From: an uncultured Actinomycetota bacterium
Lineage (GTDB): Bacteria; Actinomycetota; Actinomycetes; CAWDCV01
Reading direction: 5' to 3'
Length of the DNA stretch: 64,000 bases
NCBI GenBank assembly: GCA_963801015.1
Contig: CAWDCV010000002.1
Span: 1,060,118 to 1,124,117, forward strand
Shown: positions 16,083 to 27,104 of the stretch, piece by piece
Numbering within the stretch: position 1 is the first letter of the stretch
Layout of the letters: each line of letters starts with the position of its first letter
Position numbers and translations under genes: made by a program
The notes under the pieces: generated by a model
The model's input: the letters and a program-made list of their open reading frames with translations, nothing else
The model's database searches: none
What the model was told of the DNA's origin: nothing

Positions 16083-16158
16083 TGGCGCGCCCGAAGGGAT
16101 TCGAACCCCTAACCTTCTGATCCGTAGTCAGATGCTCTGTCCGTTGAGCTACGGGCGC
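16083..16158 (-). tRNA. tRNA-Arg (anticodon ACG)
   Basis: Reverse complement GCGCCCGTAGCTCAACGGACAGAGCATCTGACTACGGATCAGAAGGTTAGGGGTTCGAATCCCTTCGGGCGCGCCA folds as a cloverleaf: 7-bp acceptor, GTTCGAATC T-loop, anticodon loop CTACGGA, encoded CCA. Confidence 0.9.
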
Positions 16159-16602: not shown

Positions 16603-17448
16603 ATGGACACCTCTCGGTCCGCGCGGATGCGGTACCGGATCTGGGAAGTGGCCATCGGCGAGACCTGCATGGCACTCGCGGTCCTGCTCACGGCGTTCGT
16701 CATCGCGAAGGTGTCGCCAATCGACGCGCTGGACGTGCGCTGGGCGACGTGGCTCGCCGACCATCGCAGCGAGCTGATCGAGGACGCCTCGGTGTGGCTC
16801 GGCCTGCTCGGTGGTGGCGGCGTGATGTGGCCGGTGATCGGCGTGATCGTCGTCGGCCTGGCCTACACCCGTCGATCGGAATCACTCGTCGTCTTCGGGC
16901 TGACCGTCTCGACGGCGCAGCTGTTCATCGGACCGCTCAAAGCGATCGTGGCGCGCGCGCGGCCAGACGACGCGCTGATGGTGACCAGCGGGCTGTCGTT
17001 CCCGTCCGGCCACACCGTGACCGCCGCCGCCTTCTCCTTCGGACTCGTCGTGGCGATGACGCCACTCACGCGGACCCGCGTGGTCTGGTACGCCCTCGCG
17101 CTCGTCTGGACGGTGTGCATGGGCCTGAGCCGTACCGTCGTCGGCGCGCACTGGCTGTCCGACACGATCGGCGGCGCGCTGTACGGCATCGGCTTGGCGT
17201 GCCTGTGGTCCGGTGTCGTCGGCCTGATCGTGCTGCGCCGGTACCCCTCCGTGCAGCCGCCGGCGACGCGACTGCCCGCGCTGGACCAGCCGGAGGCTCC
17301 CGAAACGTCGCTGGAGGATGTGCTCGCTCACGGCAGCTCCGCCGACGGGTCGGGGCGCTCACTCCCCGAACGGTTGGGGGGCGCGTCCACGAGTGCGGAG
17401 GCTCCGGGATTTGAACCCGGGAGGGGCGATAAACCCCAACCGCATTAG
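16603..17448 (+). CDS. PAP2 superfamily phosphatase (phosphatidic acid phosphatase type 2 / undecaprenyl-PP phosphatase-like)
   Basis: Membrane protein with the PAP2 motifs KxxxxxxRP (KAIVARARP), PSGH and SRxxxxxHxxxD (SRTVVGAHWLSD). Its 3' 50 nt overlap antisense with tRNA-Ser. Confidence 0.8.
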   Translation: MDTSRSARMRYRIWEVAIGETCMALAVLLTAFVIAKVSPIDALDVRWATWLADHRSELIEDASVWLGLLGGGGVMWPVIGVIVVGLAYTRRSESLVVFGLTVSTAQLFIGPLKAIVARARPDDALMVTSGLSFPSGHTVTAAAFSFGLVVAMTPLTRTRVVWYALALVWTVCMGLSRTVVGAHWLSDTIGGALYGIGLACLWSGVVGLIVLRRYPSVQPPATRLPALDQPEAPETSLEDVLAHGSSADGSGRSLPERLGGASTSAEAPGFEPGRGDKPQPH

Positions 17449-17485
17449 CAGTGCGGCGCCATAGACCGGACTAGGCGAAGCCTCC
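17396..17485 (-). tRNA. tRNA-Ser (anticodon GCT)
   Basis: Reverse complement GGAGGCTTCGCCTAGTCCGGTCTATGGCGCCGCACTGCTAATGCGGTTGGGGTTTATCGCCCCTCCCGGGTTCAAATCCCGGAGCCTCCG: 7-bp acceptor, anticodon loop CTGCTAA, long variable arm typical of Ser, GGTTCAAATCC T-loop; CCA not encoded. Confidence 0.85.
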
Positions 17486-17554: not shown

Positions 17555-18178
17555 GTGGGGGTGACCGCCCGGCCGGTGACGGCGGCACGGTGGGACGACT
17601 TCGCCGCGTTCGCAGGGCCGAGTGGGCTCTACTCGGGGTGCTGGTGCACGTACTTCCGCAGAAAGGGCGCGGAGTTCGACGCCGGCTGCCGCAACAAAGG
17701 TGTGGGCAATCGCGAGTTCCTGGCGCGGCTGACCGAGGAGGGCCGGGTGCCCGGCCTGCTGGCGTACGGCGATGAGGGCGACCCCATCGGTTGGGTGTCG
17801 GTAGGTCCGCGCTCGGACTTCGGTCGCGTCCTGCGCTCCCCGATCCTCAAGCCGGCTGCCGAGGAATCGGCCGAGCCGAACGTCTGGTCGGTGGTCTGCT
17901 TCTACATCGCCCGGTCCGCTCGGCGCTCGGGTGTCGCGACGGCACTGCTCGATGCCGCGATGATGCACGCGATCCACCACGGCGCGCACGTGATCGAGGG
18001 CTACCCGGTTGACACAGGTGGCCGGCGACGCCCCTCAGCCGAGCTCTACACCGGCACCCTCGACCTGTTCACTCGAGCCGGCTTCACCGAGGCGTTCCGC
18101 AGATCTCCCCATCGGCCGGTGGTCCGTTTCGAGGTCACGTCCGCAGAAAGTCGCGCAAAGCAGCGTCGCCGTCCTTGA
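17555..18178 (+). CDS. GNAT family N-acetyltransferase
   Basis: GGAAGGAG RBS then GTG 17555; protein with acetyl-CoA binding region (VVCFYIARSARRSGVATALLDAAMMHA). Confidence 0.7.
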   Translation: MGVTARPVTAARWDDFAAFAGPSGLYSGCWCTYFRRKGAEFDAGCRNKGVGNREFLARLTEEGRVPGLLAYGDEGDPIGWVSVGPRSDFGRVLRSPILKPAAEESAEPNVWSVVCFYIARSARRSGVATALLDAAMMHAIHHGAHVIEGYPVDTGGRRRPSAELYTGTLDLFTRAGFTEAFRRSPHRPVVRFEVTSAESRAKQRRRP

Positions 18179-19671
18179 ATGTCTTCGTGAGCCCGTCCCC
18201 CGACAACGACGTCGACACGCGTGCGCGCCGGCCTCGTCGGCGCCGCCGGGGTCGCACGGTGGGCGAAGCGCTGCTGCTGACTGCGGCGGGAGTGTTGCTG
18301 CCCGGTGCGCCGCACCGCGCGGCGGGTCGGCGGCGGCTCGGACTGCTCATCAACATCAGTGTTGCCGTCGTCGTCGTTGTCGCGATCCTGTGGGTCGTCA
18401 CCCGCTCCAGGCAGGATTTCCTCCAGCTCGCCGTCGACCCGGACGCGCTCGCCATCTTGCTGGTCGTCGCCGGGCTGCTGGCATTCGTGTGGCCAGCGTC
18501 TGTGGTCGCCGGGTGGCTCGCGGTACGCCCACGGCAGCTCTCCGGGGCGTCGCGACTAGCGGCGTATGCGACCGTGGCCGTGCTGTGCCTCGCGATCGCC
18601 GCCCCGCTCGCGGTTGCCACGCGGTACGCCTACGTCCAGCGCGATCTCGTCCTCACCGTGTTCGACGACGACGCGGGCGCGCTGGCCAGCGGAGACAAGG
18701 TCCAGCCGGAGGAAGTCGACCCGTGGGCGGGCACGCCGCGGGTCAATGTCCTGCTGCTCGGCGGCGACGCCGGCCCCGATCGTCGCGGGTTGCGCACCGA
18801 CACCGTGATCCTCGCCAGCATCGACACCGCCACTGGCAACGCGGTGCTGTTCAGCTTGCCGCGCAACCTCGAGCGGGCGCCGTTCCCACCGGGAAGCGAG
18901 CTGGCCCAGAAATACCCGCGCGGTTTCCCGGACTTCCTCAACGCGATCTACCCGACCGTCAGCGATAGCCCGAACCTGCTGGCCGGCGTCCCGGACAAGG
19001 GGATCCGCGCGGTCAAGGACGCAGTCGGCGAGATCCTGGGGCTGCCGGTCGACTACTACATGATGGTCGACCTCGAAGGCTTCCGCGAGGTCGTCGACGC
19101 GCTCGGCGGGATCACCGTGAACGTCAAGGAGCGAGTGTCGTACGGCGCGATCAAGGCCAGCGGCGCCATCGGTCGGTCGCAGGGATTCATCGAACCGGGG
19201 CTACAGCAGATGGACGGCGAGACGGCACTGCTGTACGCCCGGTCGCGCGACTTCGCCACCGACTACGACCGCATGGCCCGCCAGCGCTGCGTGGTGAACG
19301 CCATCGTCGACACGGCTGATCCGGTCACCGTGTTCCGCAGCTACCCGCAGATCGCCGGGACGCTGCGCGAGCACCTCCAGACCGACATCCCGGCGGCGCT
19401 GCTTCCCGCGTTCGTCGACCTCGGCGACCGGATCAAGGCTGGTACGCAGACGAGCGTGGCGTTCGTGCCCCCGCTGATCACGTCGGCCAATCCGGACTTC
19501 GCGCTGATCCGGCAGACCGTCACGCAGGCACTTATTCCGGTACCGCCGGAGGTTCCGGCTGCCGAGGAGAGCACGCCCACCCCGGCGATCCCGAGCGAAC
19601 CGGCCGAGACCGTCACACCGACGCCGGAAGCGATAACGGGGCAGCCGGCGAACCTCGATACCGTCTGCTAG
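18175..19671 (+). CDS. LCP family protein (LytR-CpsA-Psr cell-wall glycopolymer transferase)
   Basis: N-terminal TM anchor, LCP catalytic domain (VNVLLLGGDAG...RTDTVILASID, LPRNL, GGITVNVKERV) and a Pro/Thr-rich C-terminal tail; ATGA overlap with the upstream GNAT gene. Confidence 0.85.
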   Translation: MNVFVSPSPDNDVDTRARRPRRRRRGRTVGEALLLTAAGVLLPGAPHRAAGRRRLGLLINISVAVVVVVAILWVVTRSRQDFLQLAVDPDALAILLVVAGLLAFVWPASVVAGWLAVRPRQLSGASRLAAYATVAVLCLAIAAPLAVATRYAYVQRDLVLTVFDDDAGALASGDKVQPEEVDPWAGTPRVNVLLLGGDAGPDRRGLRTDTVILASIDTATGNAVLFSLPRNLERAPFPPGSELAQKYPRGFPDFLNAIYPTVSDSPNLLAGVPDKGIRAVKDAVGEILGLPVDYYMMVDLEGFREVVDALGGITVNVKERVSYGAIKASGAIGRSQGFIEPGLQQMDGETALLYARSRDFATDYDRMARQRCVVNAIVDTADPVTVFRSYPQIAGTLREHLQTDIPAALLPAFVDLGDRIKAGTQTSVAFVPPLITSANPDFALIRQTVTQALIPVPPEVPAAEESTPTPAIPSEPAETVTPTPEAITGQPANLDTVC

Positions 19672-19946
19672 GAGCCCACCCGAACGGGCCCGCGCCGACG
19701 TCTGTTCGGGGGACCGATGTCTGGTCGTGAGGCCGCTGCATTCCGCGGCCCCATCGGTTACGAATGTGGGACGGTGCCGGAGTCGGTGAGGGGTTGCGCA
19801 GGCGTGTGCTTTGATGGCAAGGCGCATGCTCCGGTCCGTCGGCGTGGCCGCGCCACTCCGATGACGCCGCCTCCCCTCCCGGGCGACGCCGGTGCACTCC
19901 GGGGAACCACACCGGAGCTACGTGCTGTACGCAGGGAGGATGCTCG

Positions 19947-22939
19947 GTGAGCGGCAACCGGTCAGAGCGGCGGTCGTTGAGCGACCTGCTGGCTGAGCGG
20001 CACGGCAGCGAGCCAGCGGGTAGCGCCGAGGCTTTCCAGGCTCCTCCTCCGGACGAGGAGACCGCCGCTGAGGAGACGGCGCCAGGCAACCGTGCAACGC
20101 CCGTCGGCCGCCCCGGATCCATGGCCGCGCGGCTGGCCGCGACCCGGAAAGCCCAGCAGGAACGTCGCAGGCAGCGTCCGCCACGCGGCGAAACAGACAC
20201 AGCGGACGCGTCCACCGCGCCGACCGATGAGCCGGCGGCGCACGGTGTCAACGGGGTGACACAGGAGGCGCCCGCCGCTCCCGAATCGGCCACTCCCGAA
20301 TCAGCCAAATCAGCCGCTCCCGAATCAGCCGCTCCCGACGAGGAAGCGCCGGTACGCCCTCGACCCGGCTCGGCGGCGGCCCGACTGGCCGCCGCGCGGC
20401 GCGCCCGCCAAGCTCGCCGGGAGGCCGCTCGCGAGCAGCGCGAGGCGACCGCAACGCCGGTGGCGCCGGCTGCGCCGGCTGCGCCGCCGCCGAGCCAGCC
20501 AAACCCCCCAAGCCAGCCGAGCCAGCCAAATCCCCCAAGCCAGCCGAGCCAGCGGCGGAGGCATCGCCGAAGCCAGCTGCGTCGCCCGAGCGGGCTGCGC
20601 CACCCGAGCCTGGCCGCCGACAAGCCCGGAGCTCGACATCGCCGACGCCCGTCCCGCCCGAGCGGGCTGCGCCACCCGAGCCTGCCGCCGACAAGCCCGT
20701 GAGCTCGACATCGCCGACGCCCGTCCCGCCCAAGCCCGCTGCGGCGACACCGCCCGCTGCACCCAAGCCCACTGCACCCAAGCCCACTGCACCCAAGCCA
20801 GCGGCGCCCAAGCCCGCTGCGGCGAAGCCCGCCGCGCCGAAGCCGAAGCCACCGGACGCACCTCAGCCCGCCGATGCACCGCCGGCAGCGCGCCCGACCC
20901 CAGAACCCGCGCCGCCGAAGACTGCTGCGCCGAAACCGAAGCCGGCAGTGTCCGCAACGCCACAACCCGCGCCGGCACCGCCACCACCGGCAGTCACGCC
21001 GGAGCCCATCGCCGCCCGGACGGCACAACCACCGCCCGCGTCCGCTCCAGCTGGTCCCGCTGTTGACTTGCCGAACTTTGGCGTCGTCGCGACGGTCATC
21101 GCGTTGATCGCTGCAGCCATCCTGCCCCTCCTCGCTCTCGGCGCCGCGTCGAGCGCAACGATTGCCGAAGGTGGCTACGTCGTCCGCGCCTTCGCCGCTT
21201 CCGAGATCCCCGGCGCGCTCGCGTCGACGTCCGTGGCAGATCGCCTGCTCGGTGCCTATGCCAGCGCCACCGGCGCCTTCACCGGTGACGGCAGCCCGGT
21301 GCTCGCTGGCCGCGTCCCCATGCTCCTCGCGGCAGCGGTCGGTGTCGGACTCGTCTACCTGCTCGGCCGCCACCTGACCCACTCGCGCGTCACCGCGGTC
21401 GTAGCGGCGGTCCTGTTCGGGCTATCGCCGCTGTCGATCACGCTGCACCGCATGGTCGATCCGGCGAATCTCGCCATCCCGTGCATGCTCGCGGCGATCC
21501 TGCTCGCCGCGTCCGCGACGAAGCCCAGCGTCACGCGACGGGGACGTTTCCTCGTGGTCGGCCTTGCTGCCGTCCTCGCGCTGCTCGCGCTGCTCATTGC
21601 TCCCATGCTGCTCGTTGTCGTGCCCACGGTGAGCTGGTTCGCCTGGGAGGCGCTGCGACCGACGATCCGCGATCGCGTCGTCGATGCCGTCGCGCCCGCC
21701 GTGATGGCCGTCGCGTGGCTCGTGACCTACCTCTTGGTCCGTTCCGGCGTCGGATCGACTGGACTCGGCAGCGGCGCCGAGAGCATCTCGCTGGACGTCC
21801 TGATCGGGCCCGACCCGGTGTTCGTCGTGCTTTCGATCCTCACTGCGTCGGGTGCGCTGTTGCTCGGACGGCTGCGCGTCGTCTCGGCGACGCTGCTCGT
21901 GCTCGTGCTGCTCTGCTTCTTCCCTGGGTCAGCCTCGCGCGTCAGTGCCGCGATCGCGGCCGTCCCGTTCGCTGCCCTGGTCATCCCGAGCGCGGTCGAA
22001 GCCGCCTGGCTGCACTGGCGCGAGGTCACCTCCGAGGAGTCCGCGCGGCTGCGTCGACTCGGTCCAGCCATCGTCGTCGGCCTGCTCGTCGTTCTCGCGC
22101 TGCCGATCTGGCTGGTCCGCCTGGGTCCCGAGGTCGCCTCCCGATCCGACGGCGATCCGGCCCGCGCTGTCGCTGATTTCCTCGACAGCGAGGTCTCCGA
22201 CGACGAGGCCGTCCTCGTTGACGACGCGACCTGGGTCGTCCTCGCCCGCGCCAGCGACGACCTGGCCGCGCGGATGCCGTACGACGCCGTGCGCTCCGGT
22301 GGCGCATTCGTACGATCGGGTCTCGATCCGTCCCTCGCGGTGGCCGCCGAAGGCGTCCGTGACGAGCGGTTGCGCGATTTCCTCGACCGCTCGCGCCCGC
22401 TGGCCGCATTCGGCCCGCTGGTCATCCGCCAGGTGACCCAGTCGGCCACGCAGAACCGCCCGTCCAGCCAACCCACGCCGAGCGAGACACCGCTGCTGTC
22501 ACCCGAACAGGAGCGAGCAGATCCGCTGCCTGCCGAGGAGCTCGCCGAACGGCGTGCGGCCGGTGCCGACCTGCTCCGCAACAGCAAGCTCATCGCCGAG
22601 CCACCAGCGGTCGCTGCGCTCGAACAGGGTCAGGTCGATCCCCGGTTGCTGTCGGTGCTGGTCTCCGCGATCTTCAGCCAGACGATCCGGGTCGCCGACT
22701 TCCCGGCCGCTCGTGGCGAGGAGGGCACCGACGCCGCGCGGCGCACCGCGATCATCACCCAGATCGACGGAGCGCCGGTCGATGCGAACGGGGAGGCCAC
22801 CGAGAAGCTCGTGCGCTTCCTCCAGGCACAGCTGCCGACGTACCGCCCGGCTGACGTGTCCGTCTCGTTGACCGGTTCCAGCTTGACCATCCGCTATGAC
22901 GCCCCGAGCCCCGTAGGACTCCTCGCGAGGGGGACCTGA
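19947..22939 (+). CDS. large Pro/Ala-rich repeat protein with C-terminal polytopic membrane domain (GT-C/PMT_2-like glycosyltransferase fold suspected); apparent frameshift near 20481-20492
   Basis: Frame 0 (19947..) encodes the N-terminus with internal repeats (GSMAARLAATRKAQQERRRQ / GSAAARLAAARRARQARREA). From ~20490 the adjacent frame encodes natural PAxxPK repeats (AEPAKPPKPAEPAKSPKPAEP...PKPTAPKPTAPKPAAPKPAAAKPAAPKPKPP) and runs without a stop into the 746-aa ORF 20699..22939 (>10 TM helices plus a soluble C-terminal domain). Frame 0 itself becomes an Arg-rich nonsense tail. Confidence 0.6.
20460..20830 (+). repeat. in-frame coding tandem repeats (30-bp SQP/PKPAEP unit x2-3; ~75-bp unit x2 at ~20583-20735; 15-bp aagcccactgcaccc unit x3)
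   Basis: Direct repeats visible in sequence. The two ~75-bp copies differ by a +1 and a -1 indel that compensate each other (PEPGRRQARSSTSP versus PEPAADKPVSSTSP). Confidence 0.7.
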
Positions 22940-22968
22940 TGCTCACCAGAAAGAGAAGGGGAGGAATA

Positions 22969-23874
22969 GTGAAATCTCGTATGCGCGCCATGGCATCGGC
23001 AGGAGCCGCCGCCGTCGCGCTTCTCGCGGCCTCATGGGCAGGTGCTGCCCCGGCGGTCGCTCAAACGGACTCGGTCGTCCCGACGTCCACCGGCTGGGTG
23101 CGGCTTGCCCACCTGTCCCCGGACACGCCGAACGTCGACGTCTACCTCACCTCGTTCGACCGACCCGATTTCCGCGAGGTGTTTCCCGGCGTCGGCTACG
23201 GCGTCGTCTCCGACTACCAGCGACTCGAGCCGGGCCGCTACAACGTCGAGATGCGGCCGGCAGGTGCCGCCGAGAGCACGCCGCCGGTGATCTCCGCAGC
23301 CGCGGACGTCCAGGGCGGCCTCGCGTACACCGTGGCGGGTCTCGGCCAAAATGCGCAGCTGCAGCTCAAGGTGCTGTCGGACGACCTGTCGCTGCCGCCC
23401 TCGGGGCAGGCCAAGGTGCGAATCGTCAACGCCTCGCTCAACGCGCCGCTCGTCGACGTGTCGGTGCAGAACGGGCCGACCGTAGCGACGGGCGTGGCGT
23501 TCGCCAACTCGTCGCAGTACGGCTCCGTCCCGGCCGGTTCGTGGACGCTGTCGGTCACGCCCAAGGAGGGGGCGACGACACCCTCCACCGGCAACGTCGA
23601 CCTCGCCGCGGGCAGCGTGTACTCGGTGCTGCTCCTGGACGAGGCGGATGGAACCGTCGAGGTCGTCACCCACACCGACGCATCGGCGGCTGGAGCCGCA
23701 GCGGCTGGCGGCGTCGCCACCGGGCTCGGTGGTACGGCCGGAGGCAGCTCCTCGCTGCCGCTAACCGTGTTGGCGATCGGCGCCGGTGTGCTACTCGCCG
23801 GTGCGCTCGGGCTGCGCCGCATGCTCGTCCCGGCTCGTGGCCGCTACGTCGCGTCCCACCGGATGCCCGGCTGA
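22969..23874 (+). CDS. DUF4397 domain-containing secreted/surface protein with C-terminal membrane anchor
   Basis: AGGGGAGGAA RBS then GTG 22969. Signal peptide MRAMASAGAAAVALLAASWAGAAPAVA, then DUF4397 repeats (VRLAHLSPDTPNVDVYL..., KVRIVNASLNAPLVDVSV...). The C-terminus reads GGTAGGSSSLPLTVLAIGAGVLLAGALGLRRM... Confidence 0.75.
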   Translation: MKSRMRAMASAGAAAVALLAASWAGAAPAVAQTDSVVPTSTGWVRLAHLSPDTPNVDVYLTSFDRPDFREVFPGVGYGVVSDYQRLEPGRYNVEMRPAGAAESTPPVISAAADVQGGLAYTVAGLGQNAQLQLKVLSDDLSLPPSGQAKVRIVNASLNAPLVDVSVQNGPTVATGVAFANSSQYGSVPAGSWTLSVTPKEGATTPSTGNVDLAAGSVYSVLLLDEADGTVEVVTHTDASAAGAAAAGGVATGLGGTAGGSSSLPLTVLAIGAGVLLAGALGLRRMLVPARGRYVASHRMPG

Positions 23875-24461
23875 ATCGCTCCATCCAGCTGCTCGCCGCC
23901 GCGGTGCTCCTTGCCGCGGCGGCGGGCTGTGGGACGCGCTCCGACTCCGGGACCGCGTCCGCGCCTCGGCAGGAATCGCCGCCCCCAACGATCTCGTCGA
24001 CAATGATCCCGGTGCTGCGGTCAGCAGCGCCGGTCTCGCTGACGATCCCCAAGCTCGACCTGGCCGTCGACCTCGAGCGCCTAGGCCTCGACGATGCCGG
24101 GGCGCTCATTCCGCCGCAGGACTTCGCTCGACCCGGCTGGTACGTCGACAGCGCGGTCCCCGGTGACGTCGGCCCCGCTGTGATCGCCGGCCACGTCGAC
24201 TCGCGCAACGGGCCCGCCGTCTTCTACGACTTGCGCGAGCTAGCGCCAGGAGACGTCGTCGACGTCGGCCGTGAGGACGGCAGCACGGCCCGCTTCAGCG
24301 TCCTCGGCACCGAGCAGTACCCCAAGGACGAGTTCCCGACCCAGGCGGTCTACGGCCCCACGCCGGATGCGGAACTGCGCCTCATCACCTGCGGCGGCGT
24401 GTTCGACCGGGCGGCGCGCTCGTATCGCGACAACGTCGTCGTCTACGCGGTCGCCGCCTGA
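23871..24461 (+). CDS. class F sortase (transpeptidase); start codon unresolved
   Basis: Catalytic domain motifs: TIPKLDLAVDLERLG...GWYVDSAVPGDVGPAVIAGHVD...LRLITCGGVFD...NVVVYAV. The in-frame N-terminus LNRSIQLLAAAVLLAAAAGCG has no ATG/GTG; an ATG at 23863 (MPG) is one base out of frame, a possible homopolymer indel. Confidence 0.75.
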   Translation: MNRSIQLLAAAVLLAAAAGCGTRSDSGTASAPRQESPPPTISSTMIPVLRSAAPVSLTIPKLDLAVDLERLGLDDAGALIPPQDFARPGWYVDSAVPGDVGPAVIAGHVDSRNGPAVFYDLRELAPGDVVDVGREDGSTARFSVLGTEQYPKDEFPTQAVYGPTPDAELRLITCGGVFDRAARSYRDNVVVYAVAA

Positions 24462-24492: not shown

Positions 24493-25722
24493 CTACCAGG
24501 TCGGACGCAGCGGCATTCCCGACGTGCCGTCGTCGGAGGTTCGCACGCCGAGCACCTGATGCAGCTCGATCTGGTCGCGATCGAACCCCAGCCGGGACGC
24601 CGCCATGTACAGACGCCACACCCGCGCTCGTCCCTCGCCGACCTCCCGCACCGACTCGTCCCAGTGCTCGTCGAGGTTGGCCACCCAGGCGCGAACCGTG
24701 CGCGCGTAATGCTCCCTGAGGTTCTCCTCGTGCCGCACCTCGAGCCCGCTGTCCTGCATCGCCGACACCAGCGTGCCGACGCCTTCGAGCTCGCCGTCGG
24801 GGAAGACGTACCGACTGATGAACTTGCCTGCCTGGGCGGGCGCCGTCGTCGTCGGACGGGTGATGCAGTGATTGAGCAGCCGACCCTCGGGACGCAGCTT
24901 CGCCCGCAGGAAACTGAAGTACGCGGCCAGCTGGCCCTTGCCGACGTGCTCCGTCAAACCGATCGACGACACGGCGTCGTACGACATGCCGGGAGCGTCG
25001 CGGTAGTCGAGGAAGCGCACATCCGCCCGATCGGACAGGCCTCGCTCGGCGATCGCCTTCTGCGCCCACTCCGCCTGCCGCCGGGACAGCGTGACACCGA
25101 GAGCCTGGACGCCGTAGTGCTCGGCAGCATGCATCACCATGCCGCCCCAGCCACAGCCGACGTCGAGTAGACGCTCGCCCTCCTTCAGGTCGAGCTTTCG
25201 CGCCACGAGATCGAACTTCTCGTGCTGCGCCTCCTCGAGCGTGGCGTCCGGACGCGGATACACAGCGCACGTGTACGCCATCGACGGCCCGAGGAACATC
25301 TCGTAGAAGCGGTTGGATACGTCGTAGTGGTGCGCGATCGCCTCCGCGTCGCGCCGACGCGAATGACGCTGTCCGCGCAGCTTCACCTCTTCGCGCGGTC
25401 GCGGCACGGGGCGCAGTAGTCCGGGGCCGAAATCGCGCACGAGCTGGGCTCGCTCGCGGATCGAGAGACGTCCCAATCGCGGATCGCTGAGCGCGCGCAA
25501 TGCGTCGTAGAGGTCACCGTGCACGTCCAGTTGGCCGGTGACGTACGCCCGTGCGAGTCCGAGCTCGCCGGGCGACGTGGCGATGTATCTGACAGCCAGC
25601 GGCGTACGAATGTCGATACACACTGGAGCATCGGACGGGCCCGTGGCGCTCCCGTCATAGGCCTCGAAGCGGACGGGGACGTCCGACTCCATCACCCGCG
25701 TGAACACGTCGGAGAGCTTCAT
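24493..25722 (-). CDS. bfaB: cyclopropane-fatty-acyl-phospholipid synthase family SAM-dependent methyltransferase (10-methylene-stearate forming, BfaB-like)
   Basis: GGAGG RBS 9 nt before ATG 25722; MKLSDVFTRVMESDVPVRFEAYDGS..., LDVGCGWGGM SAM motif, CFA-synthase C-terminal region; 5 nt downstream of the FAD oxidoreductase gene on the same strand. Confidence 0.8.
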   Translation of the reverse strand: MKLSDVFTRVMESDVPVRFEAYDGSATGPSDAPVCIDIRTPLAVRYIATSPGELGLARAYVTGQLDVHGDLYDALRALSDPRLGRLSIRERAQLVRDFGPGLLRPVPRPREEVKLRGQRHSRRRDAEAIAHHYDVSNRFYEMFLGPSMAYTCAVYPRPDATLEEAQHEKFDLVARKLDLKEGERLLDVGCGWGGMVMHAAEHYGVQALGVTLSRRQAEWAQKAIAERGLSDRADVRFLDYRDAPGMSYDAVSSIGLTEHVGKGQLAAYFSFLRAKLRPEGRLLNHCITRPTTTAPAQAGKFISRYVFPDGELEGVGTLVSAMQDSGLEVRHEENLREHYARTVRAWVANLDEHWDESVREVGEGRARVWRLYMAASRLGFDRDQIELHQVLGVRTSDDGTSGMPLRPTW

Positions 25723-25727
25723 GGCAG

Positions 25728-27104
25728 TCACCTCCTGCGTACGCACTTCTCGTACAGATCGAGTAGTCGACCGTCGGGATCGTAGGTCTTCTTCAGCAGG
25801 TCGTAGGCCGAGCCACCGTAGAGCTCCCAGAAGTGATCCTCCTCGTAGAAAGCCGTGCTGTAGAGCGATTTCCGGCCGCCGAGCTCCTCCACCTTCTCCT
25901 CGATGCGTCGGTTGTAGGTGCCCTCCGCCTCGTCCGGCTGCAACGGTACGGAGGACCAGAAGCCGAAGTTGACGTACAGCTTCGACGGGTCGAGAGAGTA
26001 GAGGTCCCAGGTGACATCGGCGCTGCGCTGCCGTAACGGACACGCCCACACCGGCGAGATGCCGATCTCGTTGACGAAGAACTCGTGGAACTCGGCTGCC
26101 TTCTCGATCGGCACCTCGATGTCCTGCACGACCGTCTCGCGCGCTGGACGGCCGCGCAGCCGGTCGTACCGGGCCGAAAGCTGGTAGCGCCGATCCCACC
26201 CGACGATGCGCCAGTAGGTATCGGATCGCAGCCGATCCTTGGGCCACAGCCGGCGCAGCCACGGTTGCTGCGCGCCGAACGCCCGCGAGCACCAGAACCA
26301 GTCGGTGTCCCATCGCCACAGGTAGTCGTGGGTGGTGAGCACATCGTGCGTTCGGCGCTGGATCGACCGGTAGTAAACGTCCATCCCCGTGTAGTCGCTG
26401 ACAGCATCAGCAGTCGACACAAAGCGCCCGATCGTCAAGTAGAGCTCGCCGCGGCTGAACAGCGTGGCGTCGACGAAGTCGCCCGAGGGTTCGGCGCACG
26501 CCTCGTCCATGGCGGCGAAGAGGTCGGTCGCTGTGCTGAATCGGCGGTGCTGCAGCTCGACGTACGGCTGCACGGGCTCGAGCTCGATGGTGAGCCGCAG
26601 CGCGTAGCCGAGCGTCCCGTAGGAGTTGGGGAAGCCGTAGTACAGCGCGCGGTGCTCATGCGTCTTCGCCCCTCCAGGAGCGGAGTCAGGGGTGGCGACG
26701 ATCACGCGTCCATCGCCGGTCATCACCTCGAGCTCGAGGACGGACTCGTGCGGCAAGCCGTTGCGGAACGACGATGATTCGATGCCGAGGCCGGTGACCG
26801 CGCCGCCGAGGGTGATGGTGCGAAGCTGTGGGACGACGCGCGGCATGAGTCCGTACGGCAACGTGGCGGCGACGAGGTCCTCGTACGTTGTCATGCCCTG
26901 CACGTCAGCGGTTCGACGCTCCGGATCGACGGACAGCACACCGCTGAAGTCGTGGACCCGCAGACCAGGGGCAGTGGTGGCGGCACGAGTTCGGAACAGG
27001 TTCGACGTCTGCTTCGCCAGCCGGACCGGAGCGTCTGCCGGGAGGGCGGCGTAGTCCGCCTGCACTCTGGACCGTCGTTCCTCGTACGCGTCGTACGCCC
27101 CCAT
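25728..27104 (-). CDS. bfaA: FAD-binding oxidoreductase (BfaA-like partner of the Cfa-family methyltransferase; tuberculostearic acid pathway)
   Basis: 458-aa PCMH-type FAD-binding domain protein (TLGGAVTGLGIESSSFRNG) immediately upstream of the cfa-like gene on the same strand; this gene pairing is the one described for 10-methyl branched fatty acid synthesis in mycobacteria. Confidence 0.7.
   Translation of the reverse strand: MGAYDAYEERRSRVQADYAALPADAPVRLAKQTSNLFRTRAATTAPGLRVHDFSGVLSVDPERRTADVQGMTTYEDLVAATLPYGLMPRVVPQLRTITLGGAVTGLGIESSSFRNGLPHESVLELEVMTGDGRVIVATPDSAPGGAKTHEHRALYYGFPNSYGTLGYALRLTIELEPVQPYVELQHRRFSTATDLFAAMDEACAEPSGDFVDATLFSRGELYLTIGRFVSTADAVSDYTGMDVYYRSIQRRTHDVLTTHDYLWRWDTDWFWCSRAFGAQQPWLRRLWPKDRLRSDTYWRIVGWDRRYQLSARYDRLRGRPARETVVQDIEVPIEKAAEFHEFFVNEIGISPVWACPLRQRSADVTWDLYSLDPSKLYVNFGFWSSVPLQPDEAEGTYNRRIEEKVEELGGRKSLYSTAFYEEDHFWELYGGSAYDLLKKTYDPDGRLLDLYEKCVRRR

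Follow-up and report, generated by a model that had tools for sequence, protein, structure and literature searches.

Predicted pairing of a G-V-x-T-G-bearing DUF4397 protein with an adjacent class F sortase in an uncultured actinobacterium and other actinomycetes

SrtB and IsdC form a dedicated sortase-substrate pair that relies on a variant sorting motif, NPQTN. Other variant motifs serve class D sortases (LPNTA) and class E sortases (LAXTG), and the sortase reaction involves cleavage between the Thr and Gly of the motif, formation of a thioacyl intermediate, and its resolution by the amine of lipid II (PMC8225981). According to the summary in that source, the only biochemically characterized class F sortase, SrtF of P. 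(Cutibacterium) acnes (Di Girolamo 2019), uses LPXTG. Mycelial actinomycetes are rich in class F sortases (Streptomyces coelicolor has five and Actinoplanes missouriensis has four), and a 2026 study called their physiological roles unknown (PMC13251363). In Actinomyces oris, an LCP (LytR-CpsA-Psr) enzyme glycosylates a sortase substrate (PMC6381275), and the periplasmic protein AlgF has been described as a mediator of protein-protein interactions (10.1101/2023.07.25.550544). Here we analyze a locus within a 64,000-nucleotide stretch of DNA from an uncultured Actinomycetota bacterium (contig CAWDCV010000002.1; hereafter, the window), whose G+C content of about 69% is that of a high-GC actinobacterium. 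At this locus, a gene for a secreted DUF4397 protein lies between a gene for a large polytopic membrane protein and a gene for a class F sortase.

Comparison of the locus with its relatives makes it very probable that the adjacent sortase has the DUF4397 protein as its dedicated substrate. We further consider it possible, at a likelihood somewhat short of even, that a large group of actinomycete class F sortases recognizes the conserved block G-G-V-x-T-G-x-G-G as its signal and that the main cargo bearing it, an AlgF-like protein, is anchored covalently to the wall and works with a catalytically degenerate GT-C-fold membrane protein that has an unannotated C-terminal domain, the whole forming an unpublished envelope system in hundreds of soil actinomycete genomes. 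The literature that we searched holds no mention of a GVDTG, GVETG, or GVATG motif, its enzyme, or its cargo, and no link between class F sortases and DUF4397. An initial annotation of this locus had called the arrangement an undescribed system. This description fits the searched literature, from which the motif is absent, but it overlooks NCBIfam, which already curates the signal as NF058571 (GVDTG_CTERM) in an entry that gives only a name. By its sequence, the cassette is a somewhat divergent member of this curated, experimentally uncharacterized type of sortase substrate.

The DUF4397 protein (positions 22969 to 23874, plus strand) comprises 301 amino acids from a GTG start at 22969, which is preceded by a GGGAGG Shine-Dalgarno sequence. 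The same GTG start is found in L002, an uncultured Actinomycetota metagenome-assembled genome (MAG) with 95 to 97% protein identity; L002 and L001, also a MAG, are the closest relatives of the locus. An alternative start, ATG 22939, overlaps the TGA of the large upstream gene, and GTG 22969 was judged the better of the two. The protein begins with a signal peptide that ends ...APAVA ahead of QTD, and its C terminus has the tripartite form of a sortase substrate, composed of a motif, a hydrophobic helix, and a basic tail. The protein carries no canonical LPXTG or LAXTG pentapeptide; its motif is GVATG (23710 to 23724, plus strand), in the contexts AAGGVATGLGGT and AAGGVATGLGGTA. The hydrophobic helix TVLAIGAGVLLAGALGL and then a basic RRM stop-transfer sequence follow at 23764 to 23823 (plus strand). 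In the AlphaFold2 (AF2) model, the motif lies in a disordered linker (residues 253 to 275) ahead of a helix at residues 276 to 295.

The motif is conserved across the family. Among the 120 best DUF4397 homologs, 119 carry the pattern G-x-[VILM]-x-[TAS]-G-x-G-[GADS], a spacer of about 10 to 15 residues, a hydrophobic helix, and a cluster of Arg residues. In these 119 proteins, motif position X is mostly Glu (65), Ala (32), or Asp (18), and 114 have the Thr. An alignment of 45 sequences shows no variation at G257, G262, G264, and R294, the last within the basic cluster, and at least 90% conservation of T261 and G265. By this alignment and the pattern counts, G-V-[DEA]-T-G, with the helix and Arg cluster after it, is in register with the GVDTG_CTERM family. 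NF058571 aligns with the window protein at GVATG (19.3 bits; expectation value [E], 0.0011). Six of 10 homologs tested pass the NF058571 cut-off of 29 bits, with scores that include 45.1 (the best), 43.3, 39.9, and 34 bits. The initial annotation had instead read LPLTV, within SSSLPLTV, as an LPXTG-type signal with Val in place of Gly. The string is present (23755 to 23769, plus strand), 15 residues past GVATG, where the spacer meets the start of the helix. It is unconserved, however, with counterparts (MPLTV and MPMAV) only in the few closest relatives, and the ortholog alignment led us to reject it as the sorting motif in favor of the near-universal GVxTG. Orthologous DUF4397 proteins thus do keep a sorting motif, a point that had been left for checking, and it is of the GVxTG type rather than LPXTG or LAXTG. 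A scan of the open reading frames (ORFs) of the 64-kb window for the signal found no carrier besides the DUF4397 protein.

The association of this protein with the sortase was examined from both sides. A scan with one genome per species found relatives of the DUF4397 protein at 531 loci; the best 80 of these were kept and combined with L001 to give 81 loci. In 72 of the 81, the next gene downstream, on the same strand, encodes a class F sortase homolog (43 to 80% identity). In eight of the nine sortase-negative loci, the contig stops within 170 nucleotides, and the pair is therefore present in 72 of 73 informative loci. A canonical sortase start overlaps the DUF4397 stop (NTGA) in 46 of the 72, and eight have CTG at the overlap, as does the window. 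These counts support the initial annotation, which had proposed that the DUF4397 protein is a dedicated sortase F substrate and had suggested a search for such pairs in other genomes. The reverse search, started from the sortase, covered 80 soil-metagenome loci. A custom hidden Markov model of the C-terminal signal had close relatives of the window protein among its training sequences; the hit of this model in the window is therefore not independent, and only its hits in the independent metagenome loci count. An ORF ending in the same signal was found in 54 of the 80 loci, and in 40 a DUF4397 gene lies upstream on the same strand; the remaining loci are mostly short contigs.

The reverse search also revealed cargo of other kinds. 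Proteins without DUF4397 that carry GG[VA]xTGxGGT, a helix, and RRR adjoin class F sortases at L145:1330-2298 (no Pfam match) and at L133:2323-3771 on the minus strand (DUF7482). Because non-DUF4397 cargo carries the same signal, it appears to be the signal itself, not the DUF4397 fold, that is tied to this sortase group. An LCP homolog lies near the L133 cargo. Upstream of related, lipoprotein-type class F sortases, we also observed a family with no Pfam match (L108:130-1770, L120:1015-2763, and L141:3358-4803). Its members end in ...LPKGGVQTGGGGMAGSR at the stop codon, with the motif and neither hydrophobic helix nor basic tail, which would be an unusual format if they are sortase substrates.

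The sortase gene occupies 23871 to 24461 (plus strand). Its product scores 180.3 bits with the NCBIfam class F model NF033748, above the cut-off of 166, and matches the Pfam Sortase domain (PF04203; E, 2.4e-21), in agreement with the class F assignment of the initial annotation. The catalytic His (AGHVD; 24192 to 24194, plus strand) and the catalytic Cys in its TLxTC-like context (LRLITCGG; 24390 to 24392, plus strand) are invariant in 27 orthologs and align with the His and Cys of solved sortases. Comparison of the sortase domain (24030 to 24458) with its orthologs also revealed an invariant Arg four residues before the Cys and near-invariant Y132, D134, and N135. A phmmer search of the sortase against the PDB gave no match, and we found no structural template for specificity; a profile search against the PDB got no further than sortases of classes D and E, at 1e-5.

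The 5' end of the sortase gene leaves two readings. CTG 23871 overlaps the TGA stop of the DUF4397 gene, and the first canonical start, GTG 23904, lies 33 nucleotides downstream. Translational coupling, as claimed previously, would hold if CTG 23871 is used and would not if translation begins at GTG 23904, which lies past the overlap. Read from CTG 23871, the N terminus, LNRSIQLLAAAVLLAAAAGC, resembles a lipoprotein signal. Such lipoprotein-like N termini (..LLAAAAGC) occur in the window, L001, L002, and Mycobacteriales-type MAGs; other lineages have an RRHR segment and a transmembrane anchor. The GTG sortase start of the window is also that of L002, a relative with an unbroken large gene.

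We propose that the DUF4397 protein would be exported by Sec, after which its C-terminal helix and RR stop-transfer sequence would keep it membrane-bound. The sortase from the overlapping downstream gene, tethered to the membrane and here probably a lipoprotein, would recognize G-V-A-T-G and, by analogy with LPXTG, cleave after the Thr. It would then transfer the cargo to a cell-wall amine, presumably that of lipid II or peptidoglycan, and the outcome would be a beta-sandwich protein bound covalently to the wall. The outer domains of the polytopic protein, a lineage-specific partner, may dock the DUF4397 protein, as a gene fusion and synteny described below suggest.

A simpler explanation is that the C-terminal helix is an uncleaved membrane anchor, that the sortase acts elsewhere, and that the two genes are merely co-regulated. 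The distance of about 14 residues between motif and helix, the long tail of the window protein past the basic cluster, and the absence of a phenotype in A. missouriensis class F mutants would be consistent with this explanation. However, the invariant G..TG.GG block would be superfluous in a plain anchor, and the same block is found on unrelated cargo beside related sortases, with the DUF4397 protein as its sole carrier in the window. The stop/start overlap in 46 of 72 loci also argues against a plain anchor, which we regard as quite unlikely.

Several observations weigh against recognition of GVATG by this sortase and against wall anchoring of the cargo. L065 (M. tarensis) has no sortase, and its DUF4397 protein keeps GVDTG and runs into a multi-helix extension (L065:8000-9300). 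In the complete genome of Micromonospora sp. CA-246542 (L055; 7800-9400), the DUF4397 and sortase genes are both frameshifted. Within this sortase group, the orthologs compared share no Arg column past the catalytic Cys: the window sortase has R130 and R133, and the L008 and L070 sortases have none within 12 residues past TCGG. In the window, CTG stands at the coupled position with no canonical start there, and GTG 23904 leaves a signal of only nine residues, MLLAAAAGC. The window cargo, with 16 extra residues past its basic cluster, scores under the NF058571 cut-off (19.3 versus 29 bits), and the partner gene is frameshifted. From the literature, the LPXTG specificity of P. acnes SrtF points the other way, a quadruple class F sortase deletion in A. 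missouriensis gave no phenotype (PMC13251363), and no experimental test of the DUF4397-sortase F pairing was found in the papers searched.

The cargo itself resembles extracytoplasmic accessory domains. It matches Pfam PF14344 (DUF4397) over two stretches (E, 5.6e-41; 140.3 bits versus a cut-off of 30.6), and the AF2 model contains two tandem beta-sandwich, AlgF-like domains (23089 to 23685, plus strand), with a predicted local distance difference test (pLDDT) score above 90 for residues 50 to 250. The PDB structures that it resembles best by Foldseek are the extracellular domain of PepT1/PepT2, which has two lobes (E down to 5e-11), both domains of AlgF, N and C (probability, 1.0; identity to the N-domain, 30%), and the HGSNAT luminal domain. 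Several DUF4397 homologs co-match Pfam PF11182 (AlgF). The matched domains of PepT and HGSNAT belong to polytopic membrane proteins and lie outside the cytoplasm; AlgF is a periplasmic protein in its own right that acts together with enzymes of this kind. Tandem beta-sandwiches, together with low-scoring structural matches to pilins and adhesins, could also indicate that the sortase polymerizes DUF4397 subunits into a pilus-like fiber in the style of class C. Pilus-type polymerization is disfavored because no Lys column is invariant or near-invariant in the 45-sequence DUF4397 alignment. Moreover, the locus holds one cargo gene and one sortase, and the best fold matches are AlgF and PepT, not pilins; a pilus is the least likely of the explanations that we considered.

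The polytopic protein is a frequent and lineage-dependent neighbor of the pair. Of the 28 loci that are not labeled Micromonosporaceae, 26 have a homolog beside the pair, usually directly upstream and in a few cases downstream. Pseudonocardiaceae-type versions (L013:4948-8019 and L061:1523-4390) have an additional GT2 domain at the N terminus, of the processive-synthase type (PF00535 and PF13632). In Micromonospora, 21 loci have a divergent polytopic glycosyltransferase of the GT87 family beside the pair, as at L020:5973-7574 on the minus strand (PF09594; 1.7e-43), and in Actinoplanes and many other Micromonosporaceae the pair has no GT-C neighbor. A further arrangement is found at L001:17349-19787, where an 812-amino-acid paralog fuses a canonical GT39/PMT_2 domain that keeps DDEGTY, the same C-terminal domain as in the polytopic protein (...YPAPAPSGLLP), and DUF4397, in the order of the operon. 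The GT39-like part is 28% identical to the polytopic protein of the window over 593 residues; the last 40 or so residues of the fusion look frameshifted, and a GH8 gene adjoins it at 19819-20562. Judging from these sequences, this fusion is the strongest hint that the polytopic and DUF4397 proteins cooperate outside the membrane.

The polytopic protein has the fold of a GT-C glycosyltransferase. Its AF2 model has a pLDDT of 69.5, and every one of its top 27 Foldseek matches in the PDB is a GT-C enzyme (TM-score, about 0.4; E as low as 4.5e-5), among them AglB, STT3, PglB, ArnT, ALG12/9/3, DPY19, AftD, AftA, and Pmt4. Remote sequence homologs are of the GT39/ArnT family, with 27 to 30% identity. 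Its Pfam PMT score of 16.4 bits is under the gathering cut-off of 22.7, and only 3 of 52 full-length family members match PMT; the closest relative, P0125, narrowly passes PMT_2 (26.9 versus 26.1). The first outer loop reads DDEGTY...HYTYWYDHPPLGW in canonical relatives and IAEGGY in the window protein, from which the second motif is absent. The degenerate loop-1 motif is IAE in place of the canonical DDE, with an invariant Glu (21167 to 21169, plus strand), and the catalytic Asp or Asp-Glu of the first extracytoplasmic loop is missing. All cassette-linked homologs examined are similarly degenerate in DDE, nearly all keeping only the Glu, and YDHPPLGW is missing in all of them. Because the loop-1 DDE is reduced to xxE and YDHPPLGW is missing, an active GT-C enzyme is doubtful, and the protein is more likely a docking or scaffold protein than an active glycosyltransferase. 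The GT-C/PMT_2 likeness noted in the initial annotation therefore holds for the fold (27 of 27 top matches) and not for the catalytic motifs, which are lost, or for the Pfam cut-offs, which are not reached.

Activity nevertheless deserves consideration, in that the polytopic protein could be a lipid-carrier-dependent glycosyltransferase that glycosylates the DUF4397 protein or makes a glycan that this protein binds once anchored to the wall; the cassette would in that case handle glycans or produce a glycoprotein. Besides the GT-C fold and the narrow PMT_2 score of P0125, such a role would fit the N-terminal GT2 domain of the Pseudonocardiaceae versions, the divergent GT87 gene at 21 Micromonospora loci, the invariant loop-1 Glu, and the L001 fusion paralog, which keeps DDEGTY and adjoins a GH8 gene. 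The loss of both Asp residues and of YDHPPLGW in cassette-linked homologs, the restriction of PMT matches to 3 of 52 members, and the occurrence of the pair with no GT-C neighbor in Actinoplanes and many other Micromonosporaceae make this the less favored role; we consider an active enzyme possible but on the unlikely side.

The best-conserved part of the cassette-linked polytopic proteins is an extracytoplasmic C-terminal domain of about 130 amino acids (22526 to 22924, plus strand; pLDDT, about 80 to 93), with 35 to 44% identity across lineages. It was found in 542 cluster representatives (E of 1e-3 or lower), always at the extreme C terminus. Pfam and PDB sequence searches with this domain returned nothing significant. 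A resemblance to an ABC-transporter segment (...RALxxNPxxLLLDE...) had E values of 0.03 to 1 and was taken as chance. As far as the tools used show, the degenerate GT-C-fold family with this C-terminal domain is undescribed.

In the window, the gene for the polytopic protein is not a single ORF. The initial annotation had described one protein of about 1,000 amino acids; here it is split by a net -1 frameshift in a repeat region, and the relatives are intact (948 amino acids in L002 and about 1,140 in L001, each as a single ORF). The frame-0 ORF (19947 to 20702, plus strand; 251 amino acids) starts with GTG after GGGAGG and encodes the cytoplasmic N-terminal part; past about position 20490, it is out of frame and ends in a nonsense-looking, Arg-rich RRRHRR tail. 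The frame-2 ORF (20699 to 22939, plus strand; 746 amino acids) is open from about 20237, has its first start at GTG 20699, and encodes the PAxxPK linker, the GT-C-fold domain with about 11 helices, and the extracytoplasmic soluble domains. The whole span, 19947 to 22939, is 2,993 nucleotides, which is not divisible by 3. The shift lies in a hypervariable Pro/Ala tandem-repeat stretch (20474 to 20759, plus strand) of 27- and 72-nucleotide units that cannot be aligned with L002: the two sequences align in frame to 20473, and alignment resumes from 20760 one base out of phase. The repeats suggest that one base is missing near 20485 and that a compensating +1/-1 pair lies in the first 72-nucleotide copy. 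We favor an assembly error or a very recent lesion as the cause of this frame loss because the lesions are all confined to about 230 nucleotides of repeat (20474 to 20702) and the remaining 626 residues are 96% identical to P0121, with no further stops.

Taken together with the CTG at the coupled start and the comparable decay in L055, the net -1 frameshift and the local +1/-1 pair could mean that the locus is decaying, with the large gene a pseudogene, the sortase start lost, and the cassette nonfunctional in this genome. We think this improbable. The lesions stop at the repeat tract and the rest of the protein is nearly unchanged, a product started at GTG 20699 could still contain the membrane and outer domains in full, and neighboring genes have no frameshifts. 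The GTG sortase start is shared with L002, CTG at the overlap recurs in 8 of 72 loci, and the closest relatives are metagenome assemblies, for which errors in a repeat tract are plausible. A slippery heptamer, C_CCC_CCA (X_XXY_YYZ), lies in frame 0 at 20504 to 20510 in the 27-nucleotide repeat, where a -1 shift would restore the frame. Programmed -1 frameshifting was rejected, since the downstream RNA folds no better than shuffled sequences (z = +0.86) and the gene is intact in L001 and L002; the heptamer was judged coincidental. In the cytoplasmic N terminus (19947 to 20450), a 31-amino-acid leader, MSGNRSERRSLSDLLAERHGSEPAGSAEAFQ, is 100% identical in L001, where the rest of the protein is about 76% identical, and the motif RPGSxAARLAAxRxAxQxRR occurs twice. 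A homolog search with the N-terminal 168 amino acids of the large protein gave no matches.

Upstream of the cassette lie two further genes on the plus strand. A GNAT acetyltransferase gene (17555 to 18178, plus strand; Pfam Acetyltransf_1, 3.2e-08) overlaps with its stop the start of the LCP gene (TTGA), as it does in L001. The LCP glycopolymer transferase gene (18175 to 19671, plus strand) encodes a protein with three N-terminal hydrophobic segments that scores above curated cut-offs (Pfam LytR_cpsA_psr, 2.8e-26; TIGR00350, 79 bits versus 62.3), so that its initial identification as an LCP enzyme stands. A gap of 275 nucleotides (19672 to 19946) separates it from the large gene. The junctions divide the genes into two transcription-type units, GNAT-LCP and large gene-DUF4397-sortase. 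It is likely that 19947 to 24461 is a three-gene operon whose conserved core is the pair of sortase and dedicated substrate. A scan of the locus for consensus promoters and terminators found none, and Rfam had no match over the locus; its only matches in the window are two upstream tRNAs.

The initial annotation had joined the LCP gene to the cassette as one four-gene envelope module, in which the LCP ligase and an active GT-C enzyme would build or attach a polymer and the DUF4397 protein would be sorted through LPLTV. All four genes are present, consecutive, and on the plus strand, the large protein has a GT-C fold, and the A. oris LCP enzyme that glycosylates a sortase substrate (PMC6381275) provides a precedent. 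The LCP gene, however, adjoins the cassette only in the two closest relatives, L001 and L002, with none within 8 kb in the other 79 of 81 genome loci. Conserved LCP-substrate linkage of the A. oris type is thus not seen here, and the synteny (2 of 81 loci), the overlap with the GNAT gene, and the 275-nucleotide gap rule the LCP gene out as a module member. The confinement of LPLTV to the few closest relatives against a near-universal GVxTG, and the loss of the Asp-Asp of DDE, count further against the four-gene module. Ortholog comparison has already largely refuted it, and we consider it very unlikely. On this evidence, we classify the LCP gene as a bona fide LCP and as a neighbor of the cassette.

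Genes downstream of the sortase are convergent with it. At 24493 to 27104 (minus strand) lie a methyltransferase gene of the cyclopropane-fatty-acyl-phospholipid-synthase type and an FAD_binding_4 oxidoreductase gene, whose orthologs in L001 carry PF02353 and PF01565; the two resemble the bfaB/bfaA pair of tuberculostearic acid synthesis, a likeness that would suit a Mycobacteriales-like host. The two tRNA genes are tRNA-Arg(acg) at 16083 to 16158 (minus strand) and tRNA-Ser(gct) at 17395 to 17485 (minus strand). A PAP2 ORF (16603 to 17448) overlaps the tRNA-Ser gene; the 3' end of this ORF call is therefore over-extended.

For this window, the outcome is mostly corrective, since the motif, the gene structure, and the module boundaries of the initial annotation have been revised. 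More broadly, the DUF4397-sortase F pairing recurs in hundreds of actinomycete genomes, and the cassette names a concrete candidate for the cognate substrate and motif of one widespread class F sortase group, which makes the question directly testable. A sortase with non-LPXTG specificity could serve orthogonal protein ligation. The linked GT-C-fold protein, with its catalytic Asp lost and an unannotated C-terminal domain, is a candidate for a pseudo-glycosyltransferase family.

Among described systems, the nearest in enzyme class is P. acnes SrtF, likewise a membrane-associated Cys transpeptidase of class F. As summarized in PMC8225981, SrtF is a housekeeping enzyme that uses LPXTG and has several substrates, whereas the sortase analyzed here has a single adjacent cargo, a G-V-x-T-G motif, and a gene that overlaps that of the cargo. 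With the variant-motif systems (SrtB-IsdC and classes D and E), the cassette shares a specialized sortase beside its cargo, a pentapeptide ending in T-G or T-x, a helix, and a basic tail. It differs from them in that the first positions of the motif are Gly-Val rather than Leu or Asn followed by Pro or Ala, in the invariant G-x-G-G past the putative cleavage site, and in the AlgF-like cargo. The proteins of NF058571 and the sortases of NF033748 provide the closest curated match: C-terminal architecture and motif position are the same, and the adjacent enzyme passes the class F model. The window protein departs from that model by its GVATG motif and an extension of 16 residues, and its 19.3 bits compare with a cut-off of 29.

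The other components also have described counterparts. Pseudomonas AlgF, which functions in alginate O-acetylation (10.1101/2023.07.25.550544), has two tandem beta-sandwich domains, as does the DUF4397 protein, and is a periplasmic partner of polytopic membrane enzymes; it is a soluble, Gram-negative protein with no sortase anchoring, and no alginate genes are present at this locus. The polytopic protein shares its overall fold and 27 to 30% identity with the GT-C enzymes of the GT39/ArnT/PMT_2 group and differs from them in having xxE for DDE, no YDHPPLGW, scores below the Pfam cut-offs, and an extra conserved C-terminal domain. In the A. oris LcpA-GspA-SrtA system (PMC6381275), the LCP enzyme and the sortase share one surface protein, which was the precedent for the arrangement first proposed here. 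In contrast to that system, LCP linkage at this locus is unconserved, there is no evidence of glycosylation, and the sortase class and motif are different.

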